Virus record (IMG/VR): IMGVR_UViG_3300021387_000143
Span: 25,384-89,383 of that record
From: a virus
Lineage: Duplodnaviria > Caudoviricetes
Reading direction: 5' to 3' (one strand)
DNA: 64,000 bases
In this document: in pieces, positions 7,266 through 60,853 of the stretch
Layout of the letters: each line of letters begins with the position of its first letter
How positions within the stretch are numbered: the stretch's first letter is position 1
Notes under the pieces: model-generated
Told to the model about the DNA's origin: nothing
Database searches by the model: none
Seen by the model: only the letters and a program-made list of their open reading frames with translations
Made by a program: the position numbers and the translations under genes

Positions 7266-8535
7266 TCTTGGTAGAATAGGAATTGTTATTGAAGGTGATT
7301 TTGATTCTACTAAAGCATATAAAAGACTTAGTTTGGTAAAGGTTCCTCTTACGGGGGATGTTTATATATCTAAAACTGATATACCAGCTAATACAGAAAT
7401 AACAGATGAAAGATGGTATAAATTGTTAAGTGGTAATGAAGGCGATGATGAAACAATAAGTAATATTAATGCTGCTATAAATAATTTAGATTTAAAAATA
7501 AATAACTCTGTAGTAGCATTAGGTAATAGAATTACTGCATTAGGAGATGAGCTTTCTGGTTTTATGGTATGGGGTCAAGCTTATAATAATGCTAATAATC
7601 CTGAATTATTAGTAGGAGTACCGAATAATATAGAACTTGAAAACATTAGTGGGATATTATTTAAATCACCTAGAGATGGATATAGTTCTATAAGTGTAGT
7701 TGCATACACGGATAATATTCCTACTGGACGGGAAATATTAAATATTGAATTGGATAATCCTTTATTCCAAGGAAATGTATATTGTATAGCAAAAGTTAAT
7801 ATATTTGGTGGTATAAGTTACATAGTAACAACATTACATGATTCTGTAAGATATATAGAATCCATTGCTTATTTAACTAAAAATGGAAGTAATCAGACAA
7901 AGAGTTTAATGATTAATGCTATGGCTAATGTTAAAAACATGGCTAATAATGTTCAATATAACTTCCATTGTGTAAATTGTGATTTTGCTATAGATCTATT
8001 TGCTTGTGTTAAAGTTAAAAGTGGAAACAGTACTTTAGCTTTAACTACTTTAGATGGTGGAGATCCTAATACTGCAAATTATAGAAGACTAGTATTTACA
8101 GATGCTTTAAGAATAATGTTCCATATAGGCGGTTATTATAAGAATGTAAATGTTAAAAGCGGAAATTATTATGATGGTACTGCTGGCAATCCAGGTACTG
8201 GCTCTAGATTTAGTGAAAATTATTCTTATCCTGGAACATACAATGAAGCTATAGATAATGATATTCCTTTATCAATTCCTCAATTATATGGAAGAGATAA
8301 TGTATCTTTAAGTCAATTCATTATACCTAGAAATACTAAGTTTACTATAATATTGCTTCCTAATATGGATGCCTCTACGGGCAATGTAACAAAAACTTCA
8401 TATTCTAAATGTCCATATAGTATGATGTTTTGGTTCGATGATTTTGAAGCTATTATTAGATATAATAATAATGGTGTAGATATAGATAGTAGAGATAATG
8501 ACCCAATAGACAATGAATTTGATGATGATGAATAA
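7243..8535 (+). CDS. Putative tail fibre / receptor-binding protein
   Basis: Likely ATG at 7243 (AAGGAGA upstream). The N-terminal module LGRIGIVIEGDFDSTKAYKRLSLV...YISKTDIPANTEITDERWY resembles common phage fibre N-termini; followed by a short coiled coil and a beta-rich body. Confidence 0.6.
   Translation: MAINKKVSLGRIGIVIEGDFDSTKAYKRLSLVKVPLTGDVYISKTDIPANTEITDERWYKLLSGNEGDDETISNINAAINNLDLKINNSVVALGNRITALGDELSGFMVWGQAYNNANNPELLVGVPNNIELENISGILFKSPRDGYSSISVVAYTDNIPTGREILNIELDNPLFQGNVYCIAKVNIFGGISYIVTTLHDSVRYIESIAYLTKNGSNQTKSLMINAMANVKNMANNVQYNFHCVNCDFAIDLFACVKVKSGNSTLALTTLDGGDPNTANYRRLVFTDALRIMFHIGGYYKNVNVKSGNYYDGTAGNPGTGSRFSENYSYPGTYNEAIDNDIPLSIPQLYGRDNVSLSQFIIPRNTKFTIILLPNMDASTGNVTKTSYSKCPYSMMFWFDDFEAIIRYNNNGVDIDSRDNDPIDNEFDDDE
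7343..7358 (+). repeat. Dispersed GC-rich motif, degenerate copy (TTCCTCTTACGGGGGA)
   Basis: Inside the tail fibre gene (VPLTGD). Confidence 0.5.
8369..8384 (+). repeat. Dispersed motif copy (ATGCCTCTACGGGCAA)
   Basis: CCTCTACGGGCA core, inside the tail fibre gene (DASTGN). Confidence 0.7.
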
Positions 8536-8701
8536 TATACTATCTACTAACTTTAGTTCTTATACCAAAGATTTATCTAAGGTAGCTAAAGATATTATTA
8601 ATGATTGTCAAACTTTTTGCAATGACAATGATGTACTTGATAAGTATATTGATGAAATTGCAAAAGTCAAAATAAATGAAGTTATTAACAATTTAAATTA
8701 A
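8528..8701 (+). CDS. Small hypothetical protein
   Basis: ORF overlapping the previous stop; several adjacent ATGs, so the start is uncertain. Confidence 0.45.
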   Translation: MNNILSTNFSSYTKDLSKVAKDIINDCQTFCNDNDVLDKYIDEIAKVKINEVINNLN

Positions 8702-8707
8702 TTAATT

Positions 8708-8953
8708 ATGAACATTCTTGATTCAGTTGTATCTGCAATTAGTGTATTTTTTGTTGCAGTTGTCACATTTCTTGTTGGTCGTCATGTAGGCGCAACCGCC
8801 GTTACAGGTGTTGGTATGACACTTTGTCTTGGTCTTTCATATGCTTTTGGCAAAATGAAGGAAGGTGCTACATTTGATACTAAGACTTTTATCGGTCATT
8901 GCGTTGGTGGAGTTATTGCTACTTTTCTTGCTTGTATGGTTAGTGTAGGATAA
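8708..8953 (+). CDS. Small membrane protein
   Basis: 81 aa with about three hydrophobic segments. Confidence 0.65.
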   Translation: MNILDSVVSAISVFFVAVVTFLVGRHVGATAVTGVGMTLCLGLSYAFGKMKEGATFDTKTFIGHCVGGVIATFLACMVSVG

Positions 8954-8954
8954 T

Positions 8955-9095
8955 ATGGCTAAGACTAGAGAACACAAGTCAAGTAAGCCTCTAGCTAGAG
9001 GTAATACTGAGAGAAAGTCTCATCCTATGGTTCCTAGAGCAGGAGTAAATAGGGGAAGAACTTATCCTTATGGAGGAAAGAAGAGCAATAACTAA
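8955..9095 (+). CDS. 46-aa basic protein absent from the ORF track (MAKTREHKSSKPLARGNTERKSHPMVPRAGVNRGRTYPYGGKKSNN)
   Basis: Translated by hand; ATG 1 nt after the previous stop; fills an otherwise empty gap; ends in a YxxGGK motif. Confidence 0.6.
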   Translation: MAKTREHKSSKPLARGNTERKSHPMVPRAGVNRGRTYPYGGKKSNN

Positions 9096-9465
9096 ACTAT
9101 TGTATAAGGTAGAATTGATAATATTAAAGTTTATACCAATGGTTCTAGCATTGATGTATTTCTTTAATACAATTCTACCTTATTTTAATATTGATACTAG
9201 AGTTCTTAATTATCTTGGAGGACTATCATTGATTCCTATGATATTTTTATATGTATCTTCTTATGTATTTAAGTTTTGTTTTTATCATAGGATTTTTCTA
9301 CATTATATAGTTATAAATTATGCAATTAGTGTATATGATGAATATATAGGAATACCATTAGATAATTATAATTATGTAGTAGTTAATTGTTTAATAATGT
9401 TTATTGTAATAGTTATAGCTACAGTATCTTATGTTAATCGACGTAATAAAGAAGTTATTACTTAA
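9070..9465 (+). CDS. Multi-pass membrane protein
   Basis: 131 aa with about four hydrophobic helices. Confidence 0.7.
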   Translation: MEERRAITKLLYKVELIILKFIPMVLALMYFFNTILPYFNIDTRVLNYLGGLSLIPMIFLYVSSYVFKFCFYHRIFLHYIVINYAISVYDEYIGIPLDNYNYVVVNCLIMFIVIVIATVSYVNRRNKEVIT

Positions 9466-9733
9466 AGTAATAGATGATATTGATTCTGGAAATTCAAATA
9501 TAACAGAATCTGATGCAAATGAGATTATTGAGTGTTTAACGAAATATACTCAAAAGGATAGACCAATGAGTAAATATGAGGCTTGTATATATCTTGGATT
9601 AGCAAGAAGTACATTTGATAAATATGTTGCTAATGGAATTATTCCAAAAGGTAAACATAGAGCAGGTTTCAAAGAACTTTATTGGATTAAGAAAGATTTA
9701 GATGATGTAGTAACAAAGTTAAAACATAAATAA
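9431..9733 (+). CDS. Excisionase/AlpA-like helix-turn-helix DNA-binding protein
   Basis: MSKYEACIYLGLARSTFDKYVANGIIPKG...LYWIKKDLD matches the winged-HTH excisionase-like pattern. Confidence 0.75.
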   Translation: MLIDVIKKLLLKVIDDIDSGNSNITESDANEIIECLTKYTQKDRPMSKYEACIYLGLARSTFDKYVANGIIPKGKHRAGFKELYWIKKDLDDVVTKLKHK

Positions 9734-9756
9734 CTGAAATACATCATTTTACAAAT

Positions 9757-9788
9757 TGCCATAGAACTATTATGTTCTATGGCATTTT
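9757..9788 (+). terminator. Rho-independent terminator
   Basis: 11-bp stem TGCCATAGAAC / GTTCTATGGCA, loop TATTAT, then TTTT. Confidence 0.8.
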
Positions 9789-9793
9789 CTATA

Positions 9794-9801
9794 TACTTTT
9801 G
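9794..9801 (+). promoter_or_regulatory. Possible Bacteroidota -7 promoter element (TACTTTTG)
   Basis: Matches TAnnTTTG directly after the terminator; no TTTG -33 element at 19-21 nt. Confidence 0.35.
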
Positions 9802-9869
9802 TACCTGTAAATATATTTACATAAGTTTTTTCAACTCATTTTATTAACAAATAAAATAATTTTATAATT

Positions 9870-10433: not shown

Positions 10434-10457
10434 TTATTAACTCATAAATTGTAAGTT

Positions 10458-10916
10458 ATGTATCCTCTAAATCAATTCATAGTTAGTCCTAATCCTTTTG
10501 AGAATAACACTGATATTGAAAGTCAACTTAAAAAGCTTGAAGAATATAAAGCTCAATTAAGTGAACTTAATCAGAGAAGACAAAGGGAAACTATATGGGA
10601 CAAAATAGACAAAGAAGTGTCTAGTATGACTGATGTTCAAAAACAAAAGTTAATTGCTAATCAAGATTATGCAGCCAATGCAACTAAATTGCAAGCTATT
10701 GTTCAAGAAGAATTATTGAAACTAGTTAGAGATAAAATTGAAAACACTGCCAATGGTAAGGCTCTTCTTGAAAATCAACTTGATTTAGTTAAGAAACTAA
10801 AAGAACAAATTATAAATGATACAAACAGAGAAATGGATTTATTTAATAGATTTAGAGAATATAGTAAAATGAATCCTAACATAACTTATGATGAATTTTT
10901 AAAGAATAACTTATGA
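10458..10916 (+). CDS. Hypothetical Gln/Glu-rich coiled-coil protein
   Basis: 152-aa ORF. Confidence 0.7.
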   Translation: MYPLNQFIVSPNPFENNTDIESQLKKLEEYKAQLSELNQRRQRETIWDKIDKEVSSMTDVQKQKLIANQDYAANATKLQAIVQEELLKLVRDKIENTANGKALLENQLDLVKKLKEQIINDTNREMDLFNRFREYSKMNPNITYDEFLKNNL

Positions 10917-11287: not shown

Positions 11288-11288
11288 A

Positions 11289-11320: not shown

Positions 11321-11358
11321 TATATATTTTTAACTACTTATATAATATAAATAAGGAC

Positions 11359-17091: not shown

Positions 17092-18017
17092 CCTGTGATT
17101 TAAATCAAAAAGAATATTATTTTAATTTCATAAATAGAGCTAAAGTTGACAAATATAATTATAGTAATAAAGTAACTGAATTAACAGAAAGTATTAATGC
17201 TAGTAAATCATTGATAGTTGAAAATGTTGTTGCTATAGAAGCACTATTAGGAAAACCATTATCACCCCGTAGAGAGATAATAGACGAACTAGTAGATGCT
17301 GAAGAATCACTTTATCAACTAACAATGAGATGTCTTAGGGATAATGATAATCCTGATGATAGAAGACTACTTATAACTCTAGCTAGATATTGTAAGCTAA
17401 TTAAGTCACGAACTAATTATAATAAACTTCTTTCACTTTGTGATGATAGAGTTAACGTGACGTATGCTCAATATCGAGCTATACTTGAAACTTATTATGA
17501 AACAGTTAATCGTAATTTACTTCAAGGTTTTGGTTATAGGTATAACAATGGTCTTGGTGTTATTAGCATTAATAGATATAAACTTAGAGATGATGTAGGT
17601 AAAGTTGTAGATTTCTCTGCTACTCGTAAGGCTAAAAAAGAACTCTTAGATAAGGGGTTAAAGCCTTATGATAAAGCAGAGGCTAAATTATATGAAGAAA
17701 AAGGAATACCTTATGATGGTGTAGAATATGTCAAATATAGAAAAGGCTCTTATTATTATGAAATAACTTTATCTGATAGTAAAATTTATTCTTCTAGAAA
17801 TATTGAATTTTACAAAGATAAGAAATTAGGTAAGTTTAAAGGAATGAGTTATGAAGAACTTGCAGCTATTTGTAATACAGATGAAGAAGTTTATAATCTA
17901 CAAGTAGATACAACTGTTAAACTAAATGTCATTCTAATTAAACATCCAGAATATTATTATAAATTTATTCGTAATGTCGAAGAATCAAGGTACAAATATA
18001 GGAAGAATAATCGCTAA
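17088..18017 (+). CDS. Conserved crAss tail-block protein with possible IHF/HU-like domain
   Basis: 309 aa; YRYNNGLGVISINR...VDFSATRKAK resembles HU/IHF-like arm segments; synteny. Confidence 0.45.
   Translation: MTCDLNQKEYYFNFINRAKVDKYNYSNKVTELTESINASKSLIVENVVAIEALLGKPLSPRREIIDELVDAEESLYQLTMRCLRDNDNPDDRRLLITLARYCKLIKSRTNYNKLLSLCDDRVNVTYAQYRAILETYYETVNRNLLQGFGYRYNNGLGVISINRYKLRDDVGKVVDFSATRKAKKELLDKGLKPYDKAEAKLYEEKGIPYDGVEYVKYRKGSYYYEITLSDSKIYSSRNIEFYKDKKLGKFKGMSYEELAAICNTDEEVYNLQVDTTVKLNVILIKHPEYYYKFIRNVEESRYKYRKNNR
17263..17278 (-). repeat. Dispersed motif copy (ATCTCTCTACGGGGTG on -)
   Basis: CACCCCGTAGAGAGAT on +; encodes SPRRE. Confidence 0.65.
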
Positions 18018-18867
18018 GATTGATAATGATTTCAATCCTGATAATAGTGATTGGATTCCTAGAGTAGCAGCATGGGTATATGATGCTATGTCTATGCTTG
18101 ATTTATTAGAGGATGAAACTAAACGAATACCAATTCGTATAAATGATAGATTTGGAATTGCTGATTGTGATTTAGGATGTGATGATTTTAAGTTATATGA
18201 TAAGAATGGTTGTGAGATAGTAAAAGCAGAAGATAGTAAAAGTTGTGGTTGCGGAGCATCATCTCCCTCTACGGGGAGTTCTCAATGTGCTGAAATAGAT
18301 AGAATAGTAACTCCTCATACAGTTGTCCACACAGACGATAATATAACTCATCCAGTAAGTCAAGCAGTTTATCAACAAACAAAGTATCCTCCTAGATACA
18401 ATGTAGTTGAAGGTAATATTGGTAATCCCAATAATAACACTGAGCACAATTATGTTCGTATTGGCAGAAACCGATTAGAACTAAACTTTGATACTGATGT
18501 TGTTTATGCAGAAGTTAAATCTCTTAAAACTGAAACATATAATGGATGTGAATTTCCAGTAATTCCTGCCAATGGACTTCTAATTGAAGCTATTGGCTAT
18601 TATTGTATGTATAAGATGTTGACAAGAGGTTATAAACATCCTGTTATGAATCTTCAAGCTAGTCAATATGGTACTAATCCATTTTGGCTATGGACTCAAC
18701 TTAAAGACCAAGCAAAGAGAAGTGTTACTAATGGTAATACTAATGAAGATATAAATGATAGTGACTTATGGCAATCTGCATTTTACATTAATACTTTCGG
18801 TGGTTCTAAATCGACACAGAAGCCCGCTAGTGGGTCTAGTTCTTTAAGAAAATGTAATTGTGTATAG
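17974..18867 (+). CDS. Putative tail ring / tubular protein
   Basis: 297 aa; IIAKIDNDFNPDNSDWIPRVAAW and PVIPANGLLIEAIGYYCMYKML...HPV motifs; precedes the muzzle gene. Confidence 0.6.
   Translation: MSKNQGTNIGRIIAKIDNDFNPDNSDWIPRVAAWVYDAMSMLDLLEDETKRIPIRINDRFGIADCDLGCDDFKLYDKNGCEIVKAEDSKSCGCGASSPSTGSSQCAEIDRIVTPHTVVHTDDNITHPVSQAVYQQTKYPPRYNVVEGNIGNPNNNTEHNYVRIGRNRLELNFDTDVVYAEVKSLKTETYNGCEFPVIPANGLLIEAIGYYCMYKMLTRGYKHPVMNLQASQYGTNPFWLWTQLKDQAKRSVTNGNTNEDINDSDLWQSAFYINTFGGSKSTQKPASGSSSLRKCNCV
18263..18278 (+). repeat. Dispersed motif copy (CTCCCTCTACGGGGAG)
   Basis: Perfect CTCCC/GGGAG stem; encodes SPSTGS. Confidence 0.9.
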
Positions 18868-21900: not shown

Positions 21901-22916
21901 ACCAATATATTAATATAAAAGAAAACAAAGGAAACATAATGAATTTATGTGCTATTGGAAATATATTTCTAGTACATACTGAACATTCATTATTCCAATT
22001 TGATTTTAACGATAGACTTACTAGTAATGGTGGAGTTGTAGAAGTAGACCAAAAAGATATATTTGAATCTAGATATACTGAGTTGTTTAATACAGAACTT
22101 GGTTTTGGTGGTCTTCAAGAAAGACGAGCTGCTATTGCTGGGGATTTTGGTTATATATGGTTTAATAATGATTTTAATCATTTCTTTGCATTAAGTAAAG
22201 AAGGTCCAAAAGTTTTAAGTGAAGATATAGATGCAAGACTTAAACTAATAAAACCAAAGAATGTTAGATTTGGTGATGATAAACAAAGAAGTAGATTATT
22301 AATTAGATATGAAAATGGTGATACTATAGAAACAATTAGTTTTAATTATAAACTTGGATGTTTTGTTTCTATGCACGATTATAATAATCCTGCATGGTTT
22401 GCTTATACTAAAGATAGAATATTTGTAGTAAACACAGATAAAATTAGAGTTGGACATTTTAATTCAAATAAATTTGTTGATAGTCAATTTTCTATAATTG
22501 TAAATTATTCTTATGATGAAATTAAGTTTTTAGAATATCTTAGTTACAAGTTTACTAGAATAACTGATATTGCTAACTTAGCTGTAATAGATTTTGTTAA
22601 TCTGCCCGTAGAGGGAAGATATGTGGAAGAAAGTGGTAATTATCTATATGTAGTATCTGATAAATGTAGAACTGGTCAATTAGTTTTAAAACGAACTGAT
22701 GCATATGATAATGATAATGCTACAAATAAATTTAGAACTAATTATCCTTATTTTGAATTAGGATATTTTAATATGAATAAATTAGTTAATATTAATGGTA
22801 AAGAAAGTAGAATGTTTGGTAATTATTTTGTGTTTACATTTGTAGTTAATACAACTAACGAAAATAAAATTAATTTTGAAAGTTTTGAATGTTCTTTAAC
22901 TAAAATAAGAAGATGA
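18936..22916 (+). CDS. Muzzle / tail stabilisation protein (P22 gp10-like)
   Basis: 1326 aa; MNIVPKLNQNKHPKD start, LIAGEYYQFFIHYVNKYG, IRRSNVIADESLENSWRKF, FLVHTEHSLF, ISFNYKLGCFVSMHDY; size and position match crAss muzzle genes. Confidence 0.75.
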   Translation: MNIVPKLNQNKHPKDCTNLSLVDAKNIMFDVDQNSLSNDNKLVYDSYVVDSVKGELASYLRVSGADITINIVGSINCNKETVYFLSYYTSDENDKKLILLRRYDYTDNPFTSRDKKYLIKTPLDYHDGEIIGTFTYNRNNELIIAFSEYKEDNSLNEPLRTFNLDDIDSDLIHSPLVPEVRIPQIDKYYYIRRSWYKGQNHVFISFKISEDTYTQWYDLHTNIYTDMIEDKYFINAQIHGVKDNQNQDIDYNLQEKITLSDRSDICDVSFALKLTNINFYSHYRLAIINVVKNDTKTFVSYDIPYSTNYVEVTTSLFRNTSVAVSDIIQSFYNYYNAKELINYKNKLFISNFKEEYYDNVILEEYANRVNGNVYTAMTVDADEFINYNPTFINTDVEYFIKGIVNNKNYYQISRKNITCDLVASSNGEILKIDDSPFNTRDFSIFADVIWLLHPFTNNNNSYVSFDPTRSITSQYINGISTLLITNLSSSFRAHFLFNDTSISDINITNSGNDDEFPNSNLVLLPLTKKGQTNFAWYLFRYINSNNTFKLMTTSPVISFNIDGITETFYTNQMTGTGWALNTVQYDVTPSTENQEKAQLNIRTLIAGEYYQFFIHYVNKYGNVSLGFPINVGGEVSVVRNLNDEKVYKINENSNAQLNDIGYSQNEFKIRKLKIKDVKIPDGYIGWFISYAQFEGTTTLHGLRLQDSSAQEVQDLTVDAGKNAGRVLSLELDILDKINMNNNIIEYLYDNVGTAPKSDEITNFKLVPSNSPGNMFRTSYIKVNYESYNEAINEQPVRLKKVPLDSDGRLLLYLSKVKSLIPLSYIYYEDANEYKEIFVGNYNGVISKFEAIEYKTDLIYDAGDGSYRNLNGSAVTKGTLDNYIEVHTWYDYSTYFNESKRYRSNPQIIVTGDYDNQQNPHFTVGVIAQGRDIIDLFENNQLEMNENYPKVEMSYYELAKYKYIFDQTIRRSNVIADESLENSWRKFETDQYINIKENKGNIMNLCAIGNIFLVHTEHSLFQFDFNDRLTSNGGVVEVDQKDIFESRYTELFNTELGFGGLQERRAAIAGDFGYIWFNNDFNHFFALSKEGPKVLSEDIDARLKLIKPKNVRFGDDKQRSRLLIRYENGDTIETISFNYKLGCFVSMHDYNNPAWFAYTKDRIFVVNTDKIRVGHFNSNKFVDSQFSIIVNYSYDEIKFLEYLSYKFTRITDIANLAVIDFVNLPVEGRYVEESGNYLYVVSDKCRTGQLVLKRTDAYDNDNATNKFRTNYPYFELGYFNMNKLVNINGKESRMFGNYFVFTFVVNTTNENKINFESFECSLTKIRR
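22602..22617 (-). repeat. Dispersed motif copy (TTCCCTCTACGGGCAG on -)
   Basis: CTGCCCGTAGAGGGAA on +; encodes LPVEG. Confidence 0.9.
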
Positions 22917-23416: not shown

Positions 23417-25584
23417 AATGTAAAAGAAAGAAAGCTACATTTGGTGTTTTAGCACCCAATATTCAACGAGGTGGTATGGCTATTCCATTAGGTAATAATT
23501 TATATTGGATGAAAGGTAGAAAACATAAAACCGGTGGAATAGATATTGGTAAAGATTTAGAAGTAGAGAATAATGAAGTTATGCAAATGCTTCCGAATGA
23601 AACTAGAGTATTTAGTAGTGTAAAAATGTTAGGTGGTAATAGTCCTGCTGAATTAGTAGCTAGTGGAATGAATCCAAATATGGTTTTTAATGCACAAGAA
23701 GAATATAAGAGAATTAATAGAATTAAAGATGATGGAAGTAGATATAAAAGAGGAGGTAGAAAAAGAGCTGATGATGGTACTAGTGTAGAAACTAATAATC
23801 TTGCTAGAATATTATATAATAATAGATATAGAAATAATAAATCTACATCATTAAAAATGAATAATGAAGAAAAAGTTTTAACAATGGCTAATTACGTTAG
23901 ACCTAAAAATAATTATGAATATGCTGTAGATGGTGAAGATAATTATTTATTTCCTTTTAGAAAATTAGCTAATACAGCTGGGTTACCATCCGGTCTAAGT
24001 AATTGTACACTAACGGTTAGTCAACTATATAATCCTGCTAGACCTATAAATCATGCTAGAACTATTACTAAAAATCCTAGAGCAAACGGATTTTACGAAG
24101 TTGGTCCAGATTATGCAATTCCAGGAAGTATGGTTATAGCATCAAATAATTTAAATGATAATGATGAAAACAATGTATATCATACTATGGTATTAACTGG
24201 ATTTGCTGATAAAGATTATACATATAATTTTAATGGTAATTCATATAAAATTAAGAAAGGTGCACCATTAGTTAGTTATAGTAGAGGTGGAAACAATATT
24301 GGCGATTGGAGAACCAATATTCCTTTAGATGTTTATATGGATAATAGCGATGGGAGAAATTTTGTTAGATATTATAGACCTTTAGATGAAAATGGTAATC
24401 CAAATATATTATTAGACCAATTAACTGTTCAACCTAAAAAATATGGAGGTAAACAAATGAATTTACAAAATATTGACAATCCTCTTGCTAGAAATAGTAA
24501 GAGAATGATAAGTCCTAATAAATTAGGCACTATTGTTAGAGTAGATGGAAATGGAAGAGATAGATTAGCATACATTCCCTCTACGGGCAGTTCTAAACAA
24601 GATATGAAATGCGGTGGTAGAGCTAAAGCTCCATTTGGTAGTTCATTAAGTAGATTAAATTCTATGCTTAGTCAAATTGATATGGACGCTTTGTCAAATG
24701 CCTGGGATAGAGTTGAAGAAATAGAAGATGAAAAATATAATAATGTAAAATCTAATATGATACAATTAGATGATGGAACTTTTATTAAAGAAAGTTTGCC
24801 TGAAGTAGATGTAAGTCCAAAAAGAGATTTATTTAGATTCCCAACATTAAATATTACTTCAGCTCCATATACAGAACTAAGAAGACCCGATTTTAAGATA
24901 GGAAATCCTATAATTCCTGATAATGTAAGAAATGAAATAAAAGGTCCTGAAGATTATAAAGATTATCATTGGATTAAAAGTGCTACAGATTTATTAACAA
25001 CTGGATTAAGTACATTTAATAATTTATATTATCTTAATAAAATGAAAGAACCTCCTAGACCAGCAGTTAATCCAGGGGTTAAACTAAAAACAAAATGGAA
25101 CAATAATGCTACATTGTCTGCAATAAGGGAATCATTGGGTAATACTATAACAGATTTGGTAAGAAATACTGCTAGTTCACAAAATCTTAGAAATAGTATT
25201 AATCAAGCTAGAATAAATGCTCTAGGATTAATCAATAAATCAAATGAGGATAAAGAAAATAAAGAAACTGAATTAATTAATGCAGATTTAAGACAGAGAG
25301 CTACAAATATAAAAGATAATGTAGATAATTATAATACTTGGAGAAATTCACTTGCTGCTTTTAGAAATAATATATTTGATAAGAGAAGTGAAACATGGAA
25401 TAATATGATGTCAAATGTTAATAAAGTAGTAAATGAAGCTATTGAAAATAGAGAACAAAGAGATGCAGAAAGAAGACAGTTTGATTTTCTATCTTATGCT
25501 TATCCTATAGTTAGAAATAATCCAGCTATTTCTAATTATTTGTATGATATTTTATTTGGTAAAAATAAACAAAGTAAAAGTTAG
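23413..25584 (+). CDS. Cargo/ejection protein with an inserted Cys/His hydrolase-like domain
   Basis: 723 aa; KGRKHKTGGIDIG N-terminal segment; SNCT (C198) ... PGSMV ... YHTMV (H257); C-terminal coiled coil. Confidence 0.55.
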   Translation: MKCKRKKATFGVLAPNIQRGGMAIPLGNNLYWMKGRKHKTGGIDIGKDLEVENNEVMQMLPNETRVFSSVKMLGGNSPAELVASGMNPNMVFNAQEEYKRINRIKDDGSRYKRGGRKRADDGTSVETNNLARILYNNRYRNNKSTSLKMNNEEKVLTMANYVRPKNNYEYAVDGEDNYLFPFRKLANTAGLPSGLSNCTLTVSQLYNPARPINHARTITKNPRANGFYEVGPDYAIPGSMVIASNNLNDNDENNVYHTMVLTGFADKDYTYNFNGNSYKIKKGAPLVSYSRGGNNIGDWRTNIPLDVYMDNSDGRNFVRYYRPLDENGNPNILLDQLTVQPKKYGGKQMNLQNIDNPLARNSKRMISPNKLGTIVRVDGNGRDRLAYIPSTGSSKQDMKCGGRAKAPFGSSLSRLNSMLSQIDMDALSNAWDRVEEIEDEKYNNVKSNMIQLDDGTFIKESLPEVDVSPKRDLFRFPTLNITSAPYTELRRPDFKIGNPIIPDNVRNEIKGPEDYKDYHWIKSATDLLTTGLSTFNNLYYLNKMKEPPRPAVNPGVKLKTKWNNNATLSAIRESLGNTITDLVRNTASSQNLRNSINQARINALGLINKSNEDKENKETELINADLRQRATNIKDNVDNYNTWRNSLAAFRNNIFDKRSETWNNMMSNVNKVVNEAIENREQRDAERRQFDFLSYAYPIVRNNPAISNYLYDILFGKNKQSKS
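24575..24590 (+). repeat. Dispersed motif copy (TTCCCTCTACGGGCAG)
   Basis: Encodes IPSTGS. Confidence 0.9.
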
Positions 25585-36372: not shown

Positions 36373-39300
36373 ATGAGTTGTAAAAAGTATTCTATCTCTA
36401 TTCCTGGAGATATAGATGGCAAGTTGGCTAAAGCCATATCAGATATTAGCCAAAGTTTAGGATTTAAATATAAAACTATAGAAACTGCTCTTTCTATTAT
36501 TGCTGCTGAAAAATATGAAAGAGAAGATTTGCAGAAAGCTTTAGACGAAAAAGGTATTAATAAAATAAAGAAAGAATTAATTAATGAATACATAGCTCAA
36601 AATCCTACTGGAACAAATTCTATAGTTAGAATTTATGATGAAGATAATTTAAGAGGGTTTACAAGTGGTGTAGCTAAAGCTACAGCTATTAATTATGTCG
36701 CTTCTAATATTATATTGGAGTTACAAAGAAACATAAATACTCCAGAATCAGAACAAGAAACTAATGATAAAATTATAGAGAAGATTGTTAATGATTTAAG
36801 AAAACAATTATTTTTAAAAATTGATGAAATAATTAATGACCCATCTTATAAAGAAAAAAATAAAGATTTAACTCAAAGATTAATAGATGCATATGTTAAC
36901 AATTCTAGAAAATTAACAGAATCTATAGCTAATTATAATTCTATAAATAAAAGACTCAGAGCAATATCTTCAGCAATAAAAAAAGGTGAAGATAAATCTA
37001 AATTTAAAGATGAAGTAAAAGAATTAAATCGAGAGAAAGCAAGATTAACTGAAGATATTGCAGTTTTAAGAGGATATAAATATATAGATGCTATAAATAT
37101 TGTTAATGCTTTAAATAGAGAAGACTCATCTAATTTTAGAATTAGAGATTTTGCAAACTTAGTTAGTTTAGCTAGTGTTAATAGTAGAGATTTCTTTAAA
37201 GAAGTTGCTATTAATCAAGCATTAACTAATATAAATAAGTCATTTATTGATTCTCTTAATAATTCTCAAGTTCATTATCTTGACGATGATGTACAATCAT
37301 TTAATTCTGAAGATGCTATAATTATATTAGGAGCTAATGATGAAACTGATGAATATAGTAAATCTTGGAATGAAAATATTTTCAAAAGTTATACTCAATA
37401 TATAGATACAGCTATTAAATTTGAATTATCTACAATTCCTAGATTGACTGAATTTTATGATGATATGACTGCTACAATAAATAATGAAGAGAATAAATTG
37501 CCTTATGATACAGATAATCCCTTAGGAGTAAGAACATTTTATAATTATAAATTTGTAGTTCAACAATTAGTAAGACTTGGCAATTTTAATAGTCCTGATG
37601 ATTTCATTGAAAGTGTAGCAAAAATGGCAAGTAGAATAAAAGAACTAAATGGATTTAGTGTATTATATAATAAAATGTTATTTGATAGAGCTTTAGCAAA
37701 TAGAATATTTGTAGCATTAGGACAGCCAATAGTTGACAAAACTATTATTGATGTTGCAGATGGTCAATTAGATGTTAGTAATCCATTAGCTACTGCAGAT
37801 GTTGCAACCTATTTTAAATATAGAAATGTGTTCAAATCTACATTTTATGATGCTTATGATGTATTAGATGTAACAGGAGTTGAAAATTTAATTAAGAAAA
37901 TAAAAAGTAAAAATTTAAATATACGAGCAAAAATTAAAGAATTTAATCAAAATAAAAACTTAATAGTTTCTATATTAAATAAATATTTACCAACAGTAGA
38001 TAGTGATGTATTATTTAATTATATAAATGAGGATAGTCTTGAACAACAACAATTTAGAAGAATAAATGAAGTATTATCAATAGTTAATAATTTAGTAGAT
38101 GCAGCTTCTAAAGCATTAAATGAATTTAATAAAATAAATAAACAAAATAGAGATATATCTTTTTCAAATGCTTTTATTAGACAAAGTGGAGGAATTATAG
38201 ATGGTGTTACAGTTAAAGAACAAGAATATAAGAAATTTGATTTTTCTTCTTTAAATATTAGAGCACTTGATGCTTCATTAATAACATTATCAAAAATAAT
38301 AAATAGATATTCTGCTATAAGTATAGAATTAAATAGTAGTAATGCAGAAGGAAATATGTCAACTAATATGATGAAAAATTCATATTTTGGCAGATTCTTT
38401 CAAAAACTAAAAATGGAAGAAGAAGTACAAGATGATACAGGTCAAATTGTTACAATTAGGTCAGGATTAGAATCAATTAAAAATGAAGTAACAAAAGGTG
38501 AAAGTAATGGTGCTTCAAATCAATATGCGTACAATCCTATTTATTTTGGAATAAGAAATGCTAAAGGTTCCACTATTGTTCCTGGGTTATTTAGTAGAGA
38601 TGGGCAAAATGTTGTAACTACAAGAAATGCTCATAATATATTACAAAGTTCTTTATTTGATGGAGTACGAGATTTAGGAACTGTTAGAAGTGCTCTATAT
38701 AATACTATGAGTAGAAGTGATTATTTTTTGACACAATTCTTATCATTTCTGCATCCTGCTAAAAGAGTTATGAATGGAACATTCTCTGACACTCTAGAAG
38801 GTCATCCTAGAGCTGAATATTTTATGAGAACTCCATCAGATGCTCCTAAGAATTTTACAGTACAATATTTTAGATTAAATGATGTTGAACTTAGAGCAAG
38901 TTTTACTCAGCATTTAACTCAAGAATTGTGTGATTTTATAACACAATTAAATAATGTACTAAATGCAAATGATGATTTTTCTGTTAGAGAGGATACAACA
39001 GGATTAATAGATAGAGCACATCATGATAGAGGTAAAATAATTAAAAATGGTAGATTAGCTGGTAATCTTTTTAAGTTTAATAAATTGTTTAAAGTAGGCT
39101 CTTTAGATGTAAATGAGAGAATGGTTAACAGTCTTTCCCTCTACGGGGAGGGTAAAGATAGCCTTATTAAATATGACAGCGTTAGTGGTAAATATCGTCT
39201 TAATATGAATCAACTTGGTAAACTATTTACAATAGAAGATGGTAAAATTAAATTTATATTAACTAAAGAAACAAAGAAAATTATAGGCGGTATTGCTGGG

Positions 39301-42300
39301 CAATGGCAAAACGAATTTACTAAATATATTATAAATAATTCTCAAGAATTTAAAGATATAATTGGAAAAACAGTATATGAATATAATGAAAATGATTTAG
39401 TATCATTCTTTTTGAATAGTGCAAATATGAATATGAATTTTGATATGCTTTTTGAAGGTGATACTAAATTTTATAGAAATGCAAGAGATTTTCTTAAAAG
39501 AACAAAGGAAGGTCAAGCTGGTGGTTTAAATTATACAGGATATAATTTATCTGATGAAAGTTTTGATGATGTTCATGATATTTTAGATGCAGAAGGATTA
39601 TTTATACCAATTATGATAAAAAAGGATGGTAAATTACAAGAAAGTGGGATGAATGCTAGAAATGGATTTAGAGCTATAACTATTACAAATAAAATTAATT
39701 TTGCTAAAAGTAGACACAGATTACTTAATGAGCTAAAACAAATTCATATTAATGAAGGAATGAGTGAAATAGAAGCTACAACTGCTGCTTCTAAAGAAAC
39801 AATCGCTTATTTTGAACAAGGAAAATTTGATGATGCTCAATCTTATATAACATTTGAAGAATGGATTAGAAGAAGATTTGCTGATGGAACAATAGGAGAT
39901 TATCAAGATATAATACAACAAATATATGAAGTAAGAAGTGGTAAAAGAACAAGACAAGAAATAGATTTATCATCAATTATAAAAAGAATTCAAGTAGATA
40001 AAAACTTTTATTTTGACCATTATTATGATACAGAAACACAGACTTATTATCCTAGACAAATTAAAAATGCTGAGTTTGTAATTATACCAGAACTATTATC
40101 AGATGAAGGAATAAAAGATGAATCAAATGATTTAATTAGGCTTTATAATATTTGTGTTAGAAATGATATAGGCCAAATTAATACATCTGAAACAAGTAAA
40201 GCTGCAAAAAAGAATGTATTAACATTTTGGGATAATAATGGTGTTGTTAATAAAAACTTTGAAAAAGATATAAAGAATTTATCTGCTATAGAAAACTTTT
40301 ATTATCAATATTTATGGAAGCAACAAGAAGTTCCTGAACACATGAAAGATAAAACAAATAAGGCTGGTGTTCAGATTATGAAAAAAGTTCTTGATAATTT
40401 ATCTAATGATGAAACTAGAAGTATTGCTGAAGATTTTATGAGGAACTATGTTGCTAATATAAAACAAGACTTTGAATATTTATTAGATAATTGTGGTTGG
40501 AAATTTGATGAAAAAACTGGTCATATTGTAAATAAAGATGGTAGTGAAGATTTAGATTTTACAGTATTTTATGAAAAAGCACTAAGAGAGGCAGCAAGAT
40601 TAGGTATGGATAGTAATTTTATAGAATATTTTATACCAGACCCTGACACCGGAAAACCAAAAATGCCTAATTATATGAATAATACAGGTAGTAAGATTGA
40701 AAGTATTGTTCAAGCTATTTTTAATTCTACAATTACTAGACAAACATTACCTGGATGGCATGCTGCTCAAATTACAGACGTTGGTTATAGTGGAGAACTA
40801 AAATATCATCCTGCAGTATACAAAAAAGATGATGAAACTTTATCTGAAGAAGAATATAATAAACTGGATGATAAAACTGGATGGAATATGGAAGTTGAAG
40901 CATATATGGAAGTGTATCTTCCTAGATGGTCTTCTTTAATTCCAAAAGGTAAAACTTCTGAAGAAGATAAACAAATATTAGACCAAATATCTAAAGAAGG
41001 ACTCGATATACATATTGGTTATCGTATTCCTACTGAAGGCAAACAATCAGTATCTGTACTTAAAGTTGTAGGATTTGTTGATGATAGTTATGGTAGTACT
41101 ATTGTAGTTCCAGATGAATGGGTTATTCAGTCTGGTGCAGACTTTGACGTTGATAGTATTTATGGTATATGTTATGAAATGTATAGAGATAAATATGATA
41201 TGCTACATAAAATAGAATTTATAAATCCTTGGGCTGAAGATGTTTCAGATGAAGAAAGAGAGAATATTATACAAAAAATGTATGCTGACTATATAAATGA
41301 AAGATTAGTAAAACGGCAAAATTTTGTAGCATTAGATGATATAGATAGAGAAGAAATTAAAGAATCATTAAAATCAAATGAAAAATTAAAAGAACTTAGA
41401 AAAGCTAAAAATCAATTTAGATTTTTAGATGCAAAACTTGGTGAAAAATATGATAAATTATCTAAGGATGCAAAAGAAAGAGTGGATGTAGCAACAAAAT
41501 ATATTGAATCAAAAACTTCCAATGGTAATTATAGTGCTGCTGATATAACTAGATTAAGATCTAGAAATATAATTGCTGGTCTTACTCAATTATTAAATTC
41601 TGTAACAGATGAAACACAAAAAGAAAAAATAGAATCCTATATAGAAACACAAAAACAATTATTAGAACAAGTGAATATATTGGAAACTTTAGATAAGAAT
41701 AATATAAATTATGAAGCTATTAGAAATAAACTATATGAAGACGTTGTAAAAGAAAACTGGGATAATTATTTTGCTGCAATGCAATCTATTGCAAAAGAAA
41801 ACGGGATTATAACATATGAAGAATTTAAAGAACTCCCCGTGGAGGAAATGAATACAAAACAAGCTAGAAATAATAAAATTTTAGATTCTATTATTGCAAT
41901 TATGAATAATCCTAGTAGTAGAACTGAAAATTATGCTACTTCTAACTTTAGAGATATTACTGAAGCTAAAATTGTATTAGAAAAAATATTAGGTGTTGAC
42001 TTTACAAATAGTAGTCCTTATGACCCATTTATCCAATTAAGATTTATGGATGATGTTATGAGTGGTGCTAGACTTAAGGCTATATCTGTGAATTATGATA
42101 CTTTTGCATCTGTTGCAAATTATACAAAAGCATTACTTGGTTCTGAAACTGTTGATATATCATATGATTTAACAAGAGAAAAAGATGGAAAAAAAGTTTA
42201 TAATTTAGAGTCAATACAAAAAGCATATAATAGAGAAGGTGAAATTGAAGTTATAAGAGATAAAAATAATGTTCCAGTAAAAGTAATAGTACATCATTCT

Positions 42301-50457: not shown

Positions 50458-50473
50458 TTCCCTCTACGGGCAG
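50458..50473 (+). repeat. Dispersed motif copy, intergenic (TTCCCTCTACGGGCAG)
   Basis: Left arm of an inverted pair. Confidence 0.9.
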
Positions 50474-50580: not shown

Positions 50581-50596
50581 CTCCCCGTGGAGGGAA
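50581..50596 (-). repeat. Dispersed motif copy, intergenic (TTCCCTCCACGGGGAG on -)
   Basis: Right arm of the inverted pair. Confidence 0.85.
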
Positions 50597-55534: not shown

Positions 55535-56268
55535 AATACGTCGTGTGTTATTTGAAGTACTTGATAAAACAGGTTTGCAAGACTCTTATTATTATAAATA
55601 ACAATATGTGGATTAACATCTATAATTTCAGAATCATGAGTGTCTTCAACTTCATCATCTTCATTTCTAACAATTTTAATTATTCTACCATCAAGTTCAC
55701 ATATTAAATCTGCTCCATTTTTATATCTTACATCAGAAACATAACAAATATTGTGAACTTTAAGTAAATGTTTTATTGTATTTTCAGTAATATTAATCCA
55801 TATATCTTCACCTAGAATTTTTCTGCATATATCTGTTCCAAAATATTGCATTATATCTCTTAACTTTAAAACAATATATTTACCTTTAACTTTAAGTTCA
55901 CTATTAATGAAATCAGCAAATTCAAATAAATCATATTCATCTTTACATATATACATATAATTAAATTTTTGAATATCTGCCCAACTTTTAAATTTACCAG
56001 TATGTGGACAAAAGTACATTAAATCCTTATGTTTTCTATCATCAAAATATGCTCTAGGTATTTGAAACATTCTTGCAAGAATATCTTTCATAGGGTCAGC
56101 AAAGGCAACTTTAACTAATGATAAACTCCCCGTAAGGGAAGCATTACGCGCTACCCATCCTTCATAGCTAGCAATAGTACCGACAGTATTAATATAATGA
56201 ATCATACTAATCACTGTATCTTTACCACTGCCTTTCTTTCCGGCAACTGCTACAAGTTTAGTTTTCAT
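55531..56268 (-). CDS. Deoxynucleoside monophosphate kinase
   Basis: P-loop GKKGSGKDT, FADPMK, RDIMQYFGTDICR, SDVRY. Confidence 0.9.
   Translation of the reverse strand: MKTKLVAVAGKKGSGKDTVISMIHYINTVGTIASYEGWVARNASLTGSLSLVKVAFADPMKDILARMFQIPRAYFDDRKHKDLMYFCPHTGKFKSWADIQKFNYMYICKDEYDLFEFADFINSELKVKGKYIVLKLRDIMQYFGTDICRKILGEDIWINITENTIKHLLKVHNICYVSDVRYKNGADLICELDGRIIKIVRNEDDEVEDTHDSEIIDVNPHIVIYNNKSLANLFYQVLQITHDVL
56126..56140 (-). repeat. Dispersed motif copy with 1-nt deletion (TTCCCTTACGGGGAG on -)
   Basis: Inside dNMP kinase; encodes SLTGS. Confidence 0.75.
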
Positions 56269-56841: not shown

Positions 56842-56866
56842 CACAATCAATGCTAGGTAGCAAATT

Positions 56867-57217
56867 TTAGATTATTTGCCACACATCACAAGAATCCAAT
56901 GACTCGATATAATTAAGTTCAAAATTAGGTATATCATCTGTTGTATTACTAACATATTCTTTTAATTCTTTAGTTAATCTAATTTTATATCTACCAATAT
57001 CATCTTTATAACATTTTTTACAACTATCATGAAATTTATCTTTTCCTAATAATATAAAATAATCATAATCACCATATTTATTACTTTGTTTAGCTTGTAA
57101 AAAATAATTATATTCTTTGTCATCAATTCTAAACACAAAAAAACCTCTCTTCTTATCGAAGAAAGGTTTGTTTTTATTAACAATTTTATCTATTATGTCA
57201 TATTTAACTATTTCCAT
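56867..57217 (-). CDS. Hypothetical protein
   Basis: Likely start MEIVKYDII at 57217 (track gives 57274). Confidence 0.6.
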   Translation of the reverse strand: MEIVKYDIIDKIVNKNKPFFDKKRGFFVFRIDDKEYNYFLQAKQSNKYGDYDYFILLGKDKFHDSCKKCYKDDIGRYKIRLTKELKEYVSNTTDDIPNFELNYIESLDSCDVWQII

Positions 57218-58436
57218 AGAGTTTAACTTCCTTGACATGAAATGGAACTTGATTAACTCCACTTCTTTCACCATAACTAATATATAGCTTTTTGCCTATA
57301 TATTCATCTCTATGTTTAAGATAATAGGCTTGAGAATCTAATGTTCCATTAATATGTACTTCAAATGTCTCACTATTAATATCATTTTTACATTTGAACA
57401 AAGGTATATCATGTCTTATTCCTCCTTCAGGATAAATATCAACAATAGTAAATATACCATCAGTGGTTCTTTTATATTTAATCATAGAACCATTCCGTTT
57501 ACCAAATTGATATTCTTTATCAGGATGACGCATAATAAGACCTTCAAAACCTTCATCTATAAATTTATTTCTATAATCAAATGCCTCAGCTTCTGAACCA
57601 ACTAAAAATGAAGGAAGAACTACAAATCTATCAGTGTTAGCAAAATGTTGTTCTTTTGAGTTAATACTAATTAGAAATTCACCAAAATAAGAACGAAGAA
57701 CATGATTTCTTCTATATTGTGGCATATCTTCAATAGCTAAATCATAACACCAAAATTGAACATCTTTATTTCTAAAACTAGTAGGATCCTTCACATAATG
57801 ATTAATTTGATTTACAGTACAATTAGGAATATATAATTCTCCATCTAAAGCTATATGGTCTTCACACATAACTTTAAGAAGTTTATCATCTATAACTGAA
57901 AGAAGATATTGCTCTAAATTATTTAAACTAGTCCAAATAGTTCCTTCTCTAGATTGAAATCTAAGTTTATATTTATTAAATAAATCATTTTCATTAACTT
58001 CTACTGTGATAAAACATCTCAATCCATTGATTTTCCATTGACCAAGATAACTAGCAACACTCTTAAATAATTTATTTTTAGTATTATCAAATACTTTTGC
58101 TAGCATAGGTAATAGATTACCTTCACTATTAGTTCTATCTATAGGAAGATATGTATTGAGATAATTCAGTAACTCTCCCTCTACGGGCAGATTAACATTA
58201 TCTTTAATTTCATAAAGATATTTATATCCGGCTTTTCTTTTAGCATTGACTCTAGATTTAATCTCAGCATCCAAACTTCTAGGAGTAACTATTATTTCCT
58301 TTATTAGTTTTTTTCCAACTCTACCATGATATATATTTAGACTAGTATCATCATATTTTTCAATAGCCCAAATACATGGCTCATTATAGTTATTTCTTCT
58401 ATAAAGAGCTTTAACCCAATTAAAGGTGTACATCAT
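57204..58436 (-). CDS. ATP-dependent DNA ligase
   Basis: Motif I QWKINGLRC, ALDGELY, FWCYDL, EGFEGLIMR, YQFGKRNGSMIKYK. Confidence 0.9.
   Translation of the reverse strand: MMYTFNWVKALYRRNNYNEPCIWAIEKYDDTSLNIYHGRVGKKLIKEIIVTPRSLDAEIKSRVNAKRKAGYKYLYEIKDNVNLPVEGELLNYLNTYLPIDRTNSEGNLLPMLAKVFDNTKNKLFKSVASYLGQWKINGLRCFITVEVNENDLFNKYKLRFQSREGTIWTSLNNLEQYLLSVIDDKLLKVMCEDHIALDGELYIPNCTVNQINHYVKDPTSFRNKDVQFWCYDLAIEDMPQYRRNHVLRSYFGEFLISINSKEQHFANTDRFVVLPSFLVGSEAEAFDYRNKFIDEGFEGLIMRHPDKEYQFGKRNGSMIKYKRTTDGIFTIVDIYPEGGIRHDIPLFKCKNDINSETFEVHINGTLDSQAYYLKHRDEYIGKKLYISYGERSGVNQVPFHVKEVKLYGNS
58175..58190 (+). repeat. Dispersed motif copy (CTCCCTCTACGGGCAG)
   Basis: Inside the ligase gene (antisense); encodes LPVEGE. 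Confidence 0.9.
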
Positions 58437-58761
58437 AGTCTTGTTTTTTATTATTATTAATAATTTTTTCTATGCCTTTTCTAATCTTTGGATTCCTCTC
58501 TACACTTTCAGGTTTAAGTAAATAAGCAATTTTCTTAAACTTTTTCCAATCTTTTTCACCAATAACTAATTCAGCAAAAGCACCTTCACCTAAAGTGCTT
58601 CTATGTCCAAATATATATTTAATTCCATATACTAATCGCTTCCAAAAAGGAAGTCTATTTAAATGAATATTAATATAAACTTCCTTGTCTTCTTCATTGT
58701 ATGTAATAATACAACAATGATTTATTTCTGCACATTTGCAAATAATCACTTCATCTTTCAT
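58420..58761 (-). CDS. Hypothetical protein
   Basis: 113 aa; IICKCAEINH...FWKRLVYGIKYIFG. Confidence 0.65.
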   Translation of the reverse strand: MKDEVIICKCAEINHCCIITYNEEDKEVYINIHLNRLPFWKRLVYGIKYIFGHRSTLGEGAFAELVIGEKDWKKFKKIAYLLKPESVERNPKIRKGIEKIINNNKKQDYDVHL

Positions 58762-59264
58762 TTCTTTTTAAAACTGAATGTCATATTATCTAGAGATATT
58801 ACATTAGTTTTAACTTTCTTCTTATTAAGTTCATCAAGAAGATTAGAGTCATCACTAAAGAAACTATCTCCAGTTTTAGGATTAACATAATTATAAGTAG
58901 TTTTGCCAAAAATATCTTTAGTTTCTAATTTATAATATTGATTCTTTACTTTTGGCTTTTTATTTGTAGTCTTAACTTTAACTTTTTCTATTCCAATACT
59001 AGCATCCTTTATTATAATATTTTCTTCATGAACTGCAAGAAACATATTATACATTTTATTATAAGTAAAAGGATTGCTGATATGGTCAATATAATAGGCA
59101 AAAGCATTTTTGAAAGACTCTTCATAATTTCTTGTAGTATAGTCAGTTTCAAAATTAAGACCTCTTCTTTTTGCACTATGCCATCTTAATAGTTCTTCGC
59201 ATAATACAATTGCAGATTTACTATTAAGATTACTACTCAGTGTTCTCCATTCTGTATAATTCAT
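58758..59264 (-). CDS. Hypothetical protein
   Basis: 168-aa ORF. Confidence 0.6.
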   Translation of the reverse strand: MNYTEWRTLSSNLNSKSAIVLCEELLRWHSAKRRGLNFETDYTTRNYEESFKNAFAYYIDHISNPFTYNKMYNMFLAVHEENIIIKDASIGIEKVKVKTTNKKPKVKNQYYKLETKDIFGKTTYNYVNPKTGDSFFSDDSNLLDELNKKKVKTNVISLDNMTFSFKKK

Positions 59265-59727
59265 TTAGTCTATTATAATTCTTTCTACTAATTCTATAAA
59301 TAATAATTCTTTCAGGTTTACCAATCATACAATGATGATATTTAAACCATAAAAGATTATCCCAAGTATGACTCCAAGGATTTATTCCATCTATTGTTCC
59401 AGCATTGTAATCAAAAGTAGTAGGAATAATATTTTTACAATCCATAACATTATCATCTACAATTGGTAGATTTCTAATAAATTCTATATCATTTTCATCT
59501 TTTAGATTAACTTTTCCATAAGCTAAAATTTCTTTACCTTCAACAAATAATTCAGAATCTAAATAAAATCTACTTCTTTTATAAATATTTTCATTCACTG
59601 AATTATCTATATCTTCCTCCTCTTTTGGAGTAATTTGCTGCATCACAATGACACTTGGGTCATGTTTAGTTCCAATACGGCAAAGTATTGTTCTCTTCTT
59701 CGTATTTAAGATATTGTACTTTGACAT
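59233..59727 (-). CDS. Hypothetical protein
   Basis: 164-aa ORF. Confidence 0.6.
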   Translation of the reverse strand: MSKYNILNTKKRTILCRIGTKHDPSVIVMQQITPKEEEDIDNSVNENIYKRSRFYLDSELFVEGKEILAYGKVNLKDENDIEFIRNLPIVDDNVMDCKNIIPTTFDYNAGTIDGINPWSHTWDNLLWFKYHHCMIGKPERIIIYRISRKNYNRLNELYRMENTE

Positions 59728-60853
59728 TTTCTAAATACATTAAAGTTTGTGTAATTAATCTATCTACGGTATCTTTATCATTATTAGCAACGAGTTCACT
59801 AAAATCTTTGGCATTATATTTATGATTAATTAATATAGGTTTTATCCCATAAGTTTTACGAAGCCAAAGTGCTTCAAGTTTACCAGTTCTATCATTATCC
59901 ATAAGAGATAATATAACTCCTTGTTTAGATAGTTTACTAGTAAGCCAATCATACTCGTTATGTCTTAAATGATATGTTTCATGTGGAATATTAATAACTC
60001 CAATGTTGCCTACATTAATTCCCCCGTAGAGGGAAATGTATCGCTTAACAGCACAACCTATTGCAATTCTATCTTTTGTAGATTTAGTAATAATGATACA
60101 GTCATAATCATTTCTTTCAAGCTGATAAATTCCTTCAAGATGATTACAATTACACATAAATTTAGTATAACCTTTATCTCTTTTAGGAAAATACAACTTG
60201 ATATTACTAATTCCATTTCTATCTCTACCTAATAAATAACCGTAACATGGATCTTTAACATCATAATAATATTTAGGTTTAGGATTTATTTTTCTATTCA
60301 CATAGAATTGGTCAACAGGATATACAAAATTGATATTTAAATCCTTTAGTCCTATACCAAATTGTTTCCAATATTTTATATCATCATTGTTCCAATCCCT
60401 AGTTACTAGTTCTATTATATTCTTTTTATTTTTAATAGAATCAATAGAAGTGTTTATTTCGTTTATGAGATTTACATCTCTTTCTTTGCCATAAAATATA
60501 TCTTTAAAAACTCGAGTTATATGGGTTAAAACTCCTATAAAATCTTTTTTATCAGAAACATCTATTTTTTTATCTGTTATATTACTAATTACATAAGCTA
60601 CTAAATCAAAACAATCTCCCCAAAAATATCCAGCAAAATCTCTAAATTTAAGCTTACCTTTTTTATCATATCTAAATCCACAAGTTGGATGAGCATCAAT
60701 TCTTAATGGAGAACGAATTAACTCACCTGTTTCTATACAATGTTGAATTATAGAATCAGATATTCCAAGATAAGTACTAAAAATAGTTATTTGACTGACT
60801 TTAGAAAGAACATATTGTTTTGTTAATTTACCACTATTTATGTTTCTTCCCAT
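59666..60853 (-). CDS. dnaG: DnaG-like primase
   Basis: SPLRIDAHPTCGF, FRDFAG...GDCFD, TOPRIM-like IITKSTKD and MDNDRTG; ATG at 60853. Confidence 0.8.
   Translation of the reverse strand: MGRNINSGKLTKQYVLSKVSQITIFSTYLGISDSIIQHCIETGELIRSPLRIDAHPTCGFRYDKKGKLKFRDFAGYFWGDCFDLVAYVISNITDKKIDVSDKKDFIGVLTHITRVFKDIFYGKERDVNLINEINTSIDSIKNKKNIIELVTRDWNNDDIKYWKQFGIGLKDLNINFVYPVDQFYVNRKINPKPKYYYDVKDPCYGYLLGRDRNGISNIKLYFPKRDKGYTKFMCNCNHLEGIYQLERNDYDCIIITKSTKDRIAIGCAVKRYISLYGGINVGNIGVINIPHETYHLRHNEYDWLTSKLSKQGVILSLMDNDRTGKLEALWLRKTYGIKPILINHKYNAKDFSELVANNDKDTVDRLITQTLMYLENVKVQYLKYEEENNTLPYWN
60020..60035 (-). repeat. Dispersed motif copy (TTCCCTCTACGGGGGA on -)
   Basis: Inside primase; encodes SLYGG. Confidence 0.9.

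Follow-up and report, generated by a model that had tools for sequence, protein, structure and literature searches.

What maintains a word of 15-16 letters, repeated on both strands and mostly inside unrelated genes, in the genome of a gut phage? The question is raised by a 64,000-nucleotide stretch of viral DNA (here, the window), bases 25384-89383 of the circular virus record IMGVR_UViG_3300021387_000143 (89,383 bases; G+C 28.8%). A sequence-only reading of the window had listed 14 copies of the word and proposed that the constraint on it lies on nucleic acid and not on protein. Every one of the 14 matched in position and strand; 12 lie within coding sequences and two are intergenic, and the four frame and strand readings described (PSTG, SLYG, LPVEG and PRRE) were borne out. 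We place the phage in the Intestiviridae because its capsid protein is 71% identical to that of cr3_1 and 66% identical to that of p-crAssphage. The sequencing runs containing the genome are animal gut metagenomes according to their records.

The pattern given in the sequence-only reading, with up to 2 mismatches allowed, yielded 9 matches against 0.00 expected from 100 dinucleotide shuffles. Over the whole query genome (G000), 22 word sites were found, 12 on the plus and 10 on the minus strand, relatives having a similar balance between strands, and the word is the most over-represented 12-mer, with 12 exact copies (P ~1e-50 under an order-3 Markov model). When codons were shuffled so as to leave the proteins unchanged, the motif was recovered on average 0.12 times and at most once, as against 14 times in the actual sequence. 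Compared with a relative that is 94.4% identical (G017), none of the 37 four-fold degenerate G/C positions within the word had changed, whereas 260 of 646 (40%) had changed elsewhere. Because the synonymous shuffle loses the word and its four-fold G/C positions are unchanged, the DNA sequence itself is under selection, and the proposal of a constraint on nucleic acid is upheld. Shared sites fall in variable protein loops (the gp78 homologue in 14/14 genomes, PolB in 7/13), and the frame in which one shared spot is read varies by lineage (PSTG or PLRG; LYGG or LRG), so the DNA word has been kept while its translation changed. The frame that puts TAG in register is used at only 1 of 281 sites in genes. 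About a quarter of sites lie outside called genes, against a non-coding share of about 8% by crude gene calls, and some sites adjoin indels.

The word is confirmed as real and family-wide. It was carried by all 14 profiled Intestiviridae, in keeping with the earlier suggestion that it is a crAss phage feature retained in relatives, and in each of these 14 genomes, from three subfamilies, the top hit of a de novo search was a form of it, at 21-36 copies per genome (p-crAssphage 33, crAss002 35, 'jaberico' 29). The shared core of this pseudo-palindrome around TA consists of a pyrimidine run, Y-Y-A-C and a G run, with flanking letters that vary by lineage as dialects. One further complete genome and one distant contig, reached through homologues of the phage protein gp19, also contain it; nothing comparable was detected in five Suoliviridae, Fpv3 or phi14:2. 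In 20 Bacteroidales chromosomes, used as host stand-ins for the query, 41 matches were counted against 37 for a reversed-pattern control, which is background, and a second word pattern, counted in 121 Bacteroidales genomes, did not exceed its control in most of them. Whatever reads the word is thus not a factor with which hosts mark their own chromosomes.

Intestiviridae keep the word every ~4-8 kb, on each strand independently. Same-strand gaps have a median of 6.1 kb and only 6 of 367 are shorter than 1.5 kb, while opposite-strand neighbours lie as little as 25 bases apart. Of 28 strand sets, 23 were spaced more regularly than chance would give (p<0.02), in tests that are not independent since the genomes have ancestral sites in common. 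Orientation alternates along the genome (18 of 22 steps in the query, p 0.004; 30 of 35 in crAss002) because spacing is even within each strand separately. Orientation is not linked to the direction of genes: sites within genes are 152 sense and 129 antisense, and the would-be RNAs of intergenic sites are 43 sense and 58 antisense. Since site orientation is not tied to genes, mRNA promoters of the virion RNA polymerase (vRNAP), one of the roles proposed earlier, do not fit. These data show the word to be an ancient, selected, polar cis-signal of the Intestiviridae and, from the independent even spacing on each strand, we infer a reader that acts on one strand or in one direction with a range of several kilobases. 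Both flanks of all 22 query sites are collinear in G017, so that in this one comparison there were no inversions or excisions between sites, and no strand-changing joint at a word site was found among the assembled contigs listed from the sequencing runs. The query strand antisense to the head and tail genes runs for 24.8 kb without a site (G000 17837-42654, reaching the copy at window position 17263), and the equivalent strand is likewise irregular in G017, G005, G006 and cr271_1.

How the word may be read is suggested by what lies beside it. The word's own hairpin, to which the sequence-only reading had given functional weight, was not supported: the stem is 3-6 bp, mostly no stabler than in shuffles, and no compensatory changes were found inside the word. 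Extended flanking stems that were convincing by eye were rejected, there being no site-specific covariation over 367 sites. At 30 of 415 sites, with 1.9 expected, a mini-hairpin with a GNA loop follows 7-52 nucleotides to the 3' side of the word in the same strand; no site has one downstream on the opposite strand. Such hairpins were present in p-crAssphage, crAss002, G007, G008 and others, with loops that vary (GAA, GGA, GTA) within the rule for stable DNA mini-hairpins. This same-strand placement suggests that the word is read as single-stranded DNA. DNA mini-hairpins of this kind are also a feature of the N4 promoter, of the primase origin of G4 and of ssiA in RSF1010 (PMC13037366). In p-crAssphage, close opposite-strand word pairs with GNA hairpins (L079:28075-28185 and L080:46743-46877) adjoin both repL genes, near proposed origins.

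A candidate for such a reader is the phage primase. The query encodes a primase of DnaG-type fold, putatively cognate to the word and acting without a DnaB: the structural model (pLDDT 82.5) has Aquifex DnaG (2au3) as its best Foldseek match (E 6e-7), and DnaB was found in none of the Intestiviridae or Crevaviridae genomes searched. DnaB is present, and the word absent, in four Suoliviridae, Fpv3 and phi14:2, a pattern of DnaB that agrees with Yutin 2021 on the differential loss of these replication genes (PMC7886860). The core triplet of the word is CTA at 227 sites, TTA at 115 and CCA at 20, together 362 of 367, a match that was made post hoc and is partly built into the seed pattern; DnaG primases start at d(CTA) or d(TTA), the third base being cryptic (PMC2978363, PMC6163395).

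We tentatively favour the possibility that the word is a single-strand initiation (ssi) signal, similar to a G-site, for this primase. The strand carrying it would be exposed during displacement or recombination-driven replication of a circularly permuted genome, as predicted for crAss002 (PMC8042965). Acting by itself, or loaded together with SSB and the SF1 helicase, the primase would begin synthesis at the CTA/TTA/CCA triplet; copying of the pyrimidine run would yield a purine-rich primer, and the phage ligase would join the resulting ~6 kb fragments. Forks could cross every region both ways, given permuted ends and the RecT/SSB/SNF2/SF1 module, so that sites would be needed everywhere on both strands, in phages that encode a DnaG-type primase and in which no DnaB helicase that might bring it to the DNA was found. 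The broader proposal, that alpha/gamma crAss phages swapped DnaB-coupled priming for a lattice of ~30 signals per genome, set per strand and giving ~6 kb fragments, is a little more doubtful still; if true, the lattice would be a replication design undescribed for any double-stranded DNA phage.

Several observations weigh against a priming role. The start signal of known DnaG enzymes is 3 bases long, not 15, and their fragments measure 1-2 kb. The triplet match, as said, was drawn after the fact, one query strand has the 24.8 kb gap, and the downstream mini-hairpin is absent from the query (0/22) and from 7 other genomes, of 16. The correlation between DnaB and the word amounts to roughly a single evolutionary event, and the word's distribution is shared by ligase, SSB, DUF932, Gp157, SNF2 and gp19 too. 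crAss001 has a DnaB-like gene together with its own evenly spaced 9-mer, and Azobacteroides phage has neither DnaB nor the word, a weak counterexample because the profiles missed all of its replication genes. Primase distance does not track word dialect (partial r 0.18, p 0.16), nor was there a skew gradient at four-fold sites between same-strand sites (maximum z 2.0 in 8 tests).

Polarity and per-strand spacing would also fit a signal, Chi-like or for loading, that serves the phage's own machinery for recombination and the processing of DNA ends (RecT, SSB, SF1 helicase, Gp157, DUF932 and a PD-(D/E)XK nuclease), whereby any genome end or break would have a correctly oriented site within a few kilobases in each direction. 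The sequence-only reading had raised a Chi-like self-mark; its host-type form is excluded because the word is at background in Bacteroidales genomes, and the phage-specific form stands as a rival that we hold to be unlikely. The Chi sites known are 5-8 bases long, read by the host and enriched in its genome, whereas the stand-in hosts here have background counts only. The recombination module is distributed with the word, and of the replication proteins RecT, SSB1 and ligase are those whose distances follow dialect most closely (partial r 0.4-0.5, p ~0.01 uncorrected), but over 34 protein distances compared with dialect none survives correction, and an exonuclease partner of RecT was not identified. 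Permuted genome ends are also in keeping with this role (PMC8042965). A role as sites at which packaged DNA receives programmed single-strand nicks, as known from T5, phiKMV, tf and Rembedalsseter but here on both strands, seems less probable again. Nick motifs are likewise dispersed and group-conserved, with 88% inside genes, but those known are confined to one strand and clustered in part of the genome (PMC11780129), whereas the word is even on both. A PD-(D/E)XK gene does lie within the packaging module; the nuclease is also found in the word-less Fpv3, and opposite-strand sites 25-40 bp apart would risk double-strand breaks.

A duplex site, bound by a phage protein such as gp19 that would organise, partition or self-mark the genome in a carrier or plasmid-like state, is about as improbable as nicking. 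It would suit the pseudo-palindrome around TA and the phage-plasmid behaviour of p-crAssphage (PMC10983915), but an orientation-blind site would not yield per-strand spacing with close opposite pairs, and no RepL homologue was found in the query by BLAST. The gp19 homologue belongs to a closed family of 181 representatives confined to word-bearing families and received no identification in Pfam, PHROG, PDB or BFVD. Its confident model is without a clear fold match, having a weakly B3-like beta core with two helical insertions, and its one match to a B3 DNA-binding domain is at noise level (Z 3.0, 93 residues, root-mean-square deviation 4.0). Nor did the IHF-annotated gene, proposed earlier as a genome organiser, bear this out, as it matches a 'virion structural protein' family. 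We regard as distinctly improbable that the sites are N4-like starts of the vRNAP for DNA pull-in or priming instead of mRNA. N4 promoters are likewise laid out as a pyrimidine start and a GNA hairpin 3' of it (PMC13037366), the crAss-type enzyme favours DNA in single-stranded form (10.1101/2020.03.07.982082), and random genome ends would need dispersed starts; yet orientation ignores gene direction, one-direction ejection needs a single orientation only, the word is absent from families whose polymerase is of the same kind, dialect does not follow polymerase distance, and phi14:2 early transcripts have no common upstream motif (10.1101/2020.03.07.982082). A relic or domesticated mobile element related to repetitive extragenic palindromic (REP) sequences is scarcely credible: some sites are beside indels, but the flanks have nothing in common, the sites occupy fixed homologous positions family-wide under purifying selection, and insertions do not land evenly, so that such an element may explain the origin of the word and not its maintenance. 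REP sequences have a GTAG-GG-hairpin layout; the other strand of the word reads GTAG or GTGG, and the full GTAG-GG-hairpin is seen in G040 only. Host Chi, uptake sequences, mRNA promoters, stoperators, RepL iterons, recombination sites and active mobility were also considered, and each fails a test or lacks support. Of the sequence-only interpretation, then, the nucleic-acid constraint and the retention in relatives stood and the word's own hairpin lacked support, while per-strand spacing and the primase lay outside it.

Oriented words scattered over a genome and overprinted on its genes have precedents, as with Chi, DNA uptake sequences (DUS), nick motifs and stoperators, but two independent even lattices in a phage were found among none of the known dispersed words compared. 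The ~13-16 bp stoperators of mycobacteriophage L5 and sopC sites of N15 are dispersed over a phage genome. Stoperators differ in following transcription direction and being mostly intergenic, and sopC in having few sites and requiring a partition pair, of which none was identified here, ParB not having been searched by profile. Chi and the polar KOPS words are likewise oriented, overprinted on genes and read by processive directional enzymes, but are short, host-chromosomal and replichore-skewed, whereas the crAss word has no strand switch and is at background in Bacteroidales. Neisseria DUS and Pasteurellaceae uptake signal sequences resemble it as genome-wide words with lineage dialects, variable protein loops and selected frames; they are bacterial, occur in thousands of copies and are maintained by uptake bias, unlike a word without enrichment in crAss hosts, and we know of no uptake-bias route for a phage. 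N4 vRNAP promoters have the pyrimidine start and 3' GNA-loop hairpin on the template strand, but number three at one genome end, sense with early genes, and the word is without such a link to gene direction. The nick motifs of T5, phiKMV, tf and Rembedalsseter are similarly dispersed, group-conserved and mostly genic (PMC11780129); they are 9 bases long, on one strand and clustered, against 15 bases, both strands and even spacing on each. Closest to the priming role are the ssi signals (the G4 origin, plasmid G-sites, RSF1010 ssiA/ssiB), which are polar, single-stranded and primase-read without DnaB, with GNA mini-hairpins nearby and with ssiA and ssiB on opposite strands (PMC8567376, PMC13037366). 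These number 1-2 per replicon, at the origin and in non-coding DNA, whereas the word occurs 21-36 times per genome, mostly in genes, evenly spaced and mostly without a hairpin, and its priming role is only inferred. A full-text literature search for the word, with subscription literature largely outside its range, returned unrelated papers only, and term searches of Dutilh 2014, Yutin 2021, Guerin 2021, a 2023 review and a 2024 phage-plasmid preprint found no passage on it.

p-crAssphage, itself one of the Intestiviridae, is among the most abundant human gut phages. As a cis-signal the word is family-wide and so strong that it dictates protein sequence, and whether it serves as a priming lattice, two-strand nicks or a phage-specific Chi, each would add a new step to phage DNA handling. 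Its sites give fixed coordinates for work in cultured crAss002, 'jaberico' and C. communis, the word is usable as a family marker on short contigs, and recoded phages of the family would have to retain it.

Within the window, two plus-strand copies lie inside one 469-aa tail gene, at 7343..7358, the weakest of the 14, degenerate here and near-consensus in G017, and at 8369..8384. The copy at 18263..18278 (+) occupies a loop of the tail tubular gene, at a position common to 7/11 genomes, and that at 24575..24590 (+) is inside a 723-aa gene (PSTG). Minus-strand copies run antisense within a 309-aa gene (17263..17278; PRRE), a 1326-aa gene (22602..22617; LPVEG) and a 2648-aa RNAP-associated gene (35958..35973). 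The vRNAP gene holds two, at 39135..39150 (+; SLYG) and, antisense, at 41833..41848 (-). The intergenic copies at 50458..50473 (+) and 50581..50596 (-) form a close opposite-strand pair where two gene modules converge; such pairs are also present in other IMG/VR contigs. Beyond them, the word is found inside the dNMP kinase gene (56126..56141, -), antisense within the ATP-dependent DNA ligase gene (58175..58190, +; a position common to 9/14 genomes) and inside the primase gene (60020..60035, -; common to 13/14 genomes and read in two frames, LYGG and LRG).

The genes of interest are all on the minus strand. They comprise the ligase (57204..58436) and the homologue of p-crAssphage gp20, an SSB (60913..61845), both of whose distributions follow the word; the DnaG-type primase (59666..60853; PHROG primase, E 9e-86); the gp19 homologue, a second candidate reader (61959..62753); and a RecT-like annealing protein (62812..63786). 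In every aligned crAss primase, K or C/S replaces the usual acidic residue of the first TOPRIM motif (TKSxKD), and the zinc-binding-like domain is without the usual cysteines.

Two DnaB-less Crevaviridae-type genomes carry longer two-strand elements. G040, a 92 kb contig, has ~14 copies of a ~60-base element with the same core, in which a 7-bp hairpin lies upstream of the Y-run/TAC core and, in 9 copies, a mini-hairpin with a GNA loop lies 3' of it; its opposite strand resembles a REP sequence, and a BLAST search of plasmids and phages gave no significant match. In cr127_1, a G+C-rich 35-base element is present in ten copies, 5 per strand, several in close opposite-strand pairs. The 9-mer of crAss001 (MH675552), CTCCAGAAG, occurs 29 times over both strands, evenly spaced (coefficients of variation 0.46 and 0.61), and 25 times in the close relative OQ198717, as against 0-3 copies in DAC15, 'frurule' and phi14:2; it is possibly an analogous signal specific to Kehishuvirus. 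In the query record, the 107-base 'terminal repeat' is an assembly overlap, spanned by the SNF2 ATPase gene. The genome also strongly avoids GATC (62 occurrences against 478 expected), as well as CATG, GATATC and GAATTC, pointing to host restriction systems.

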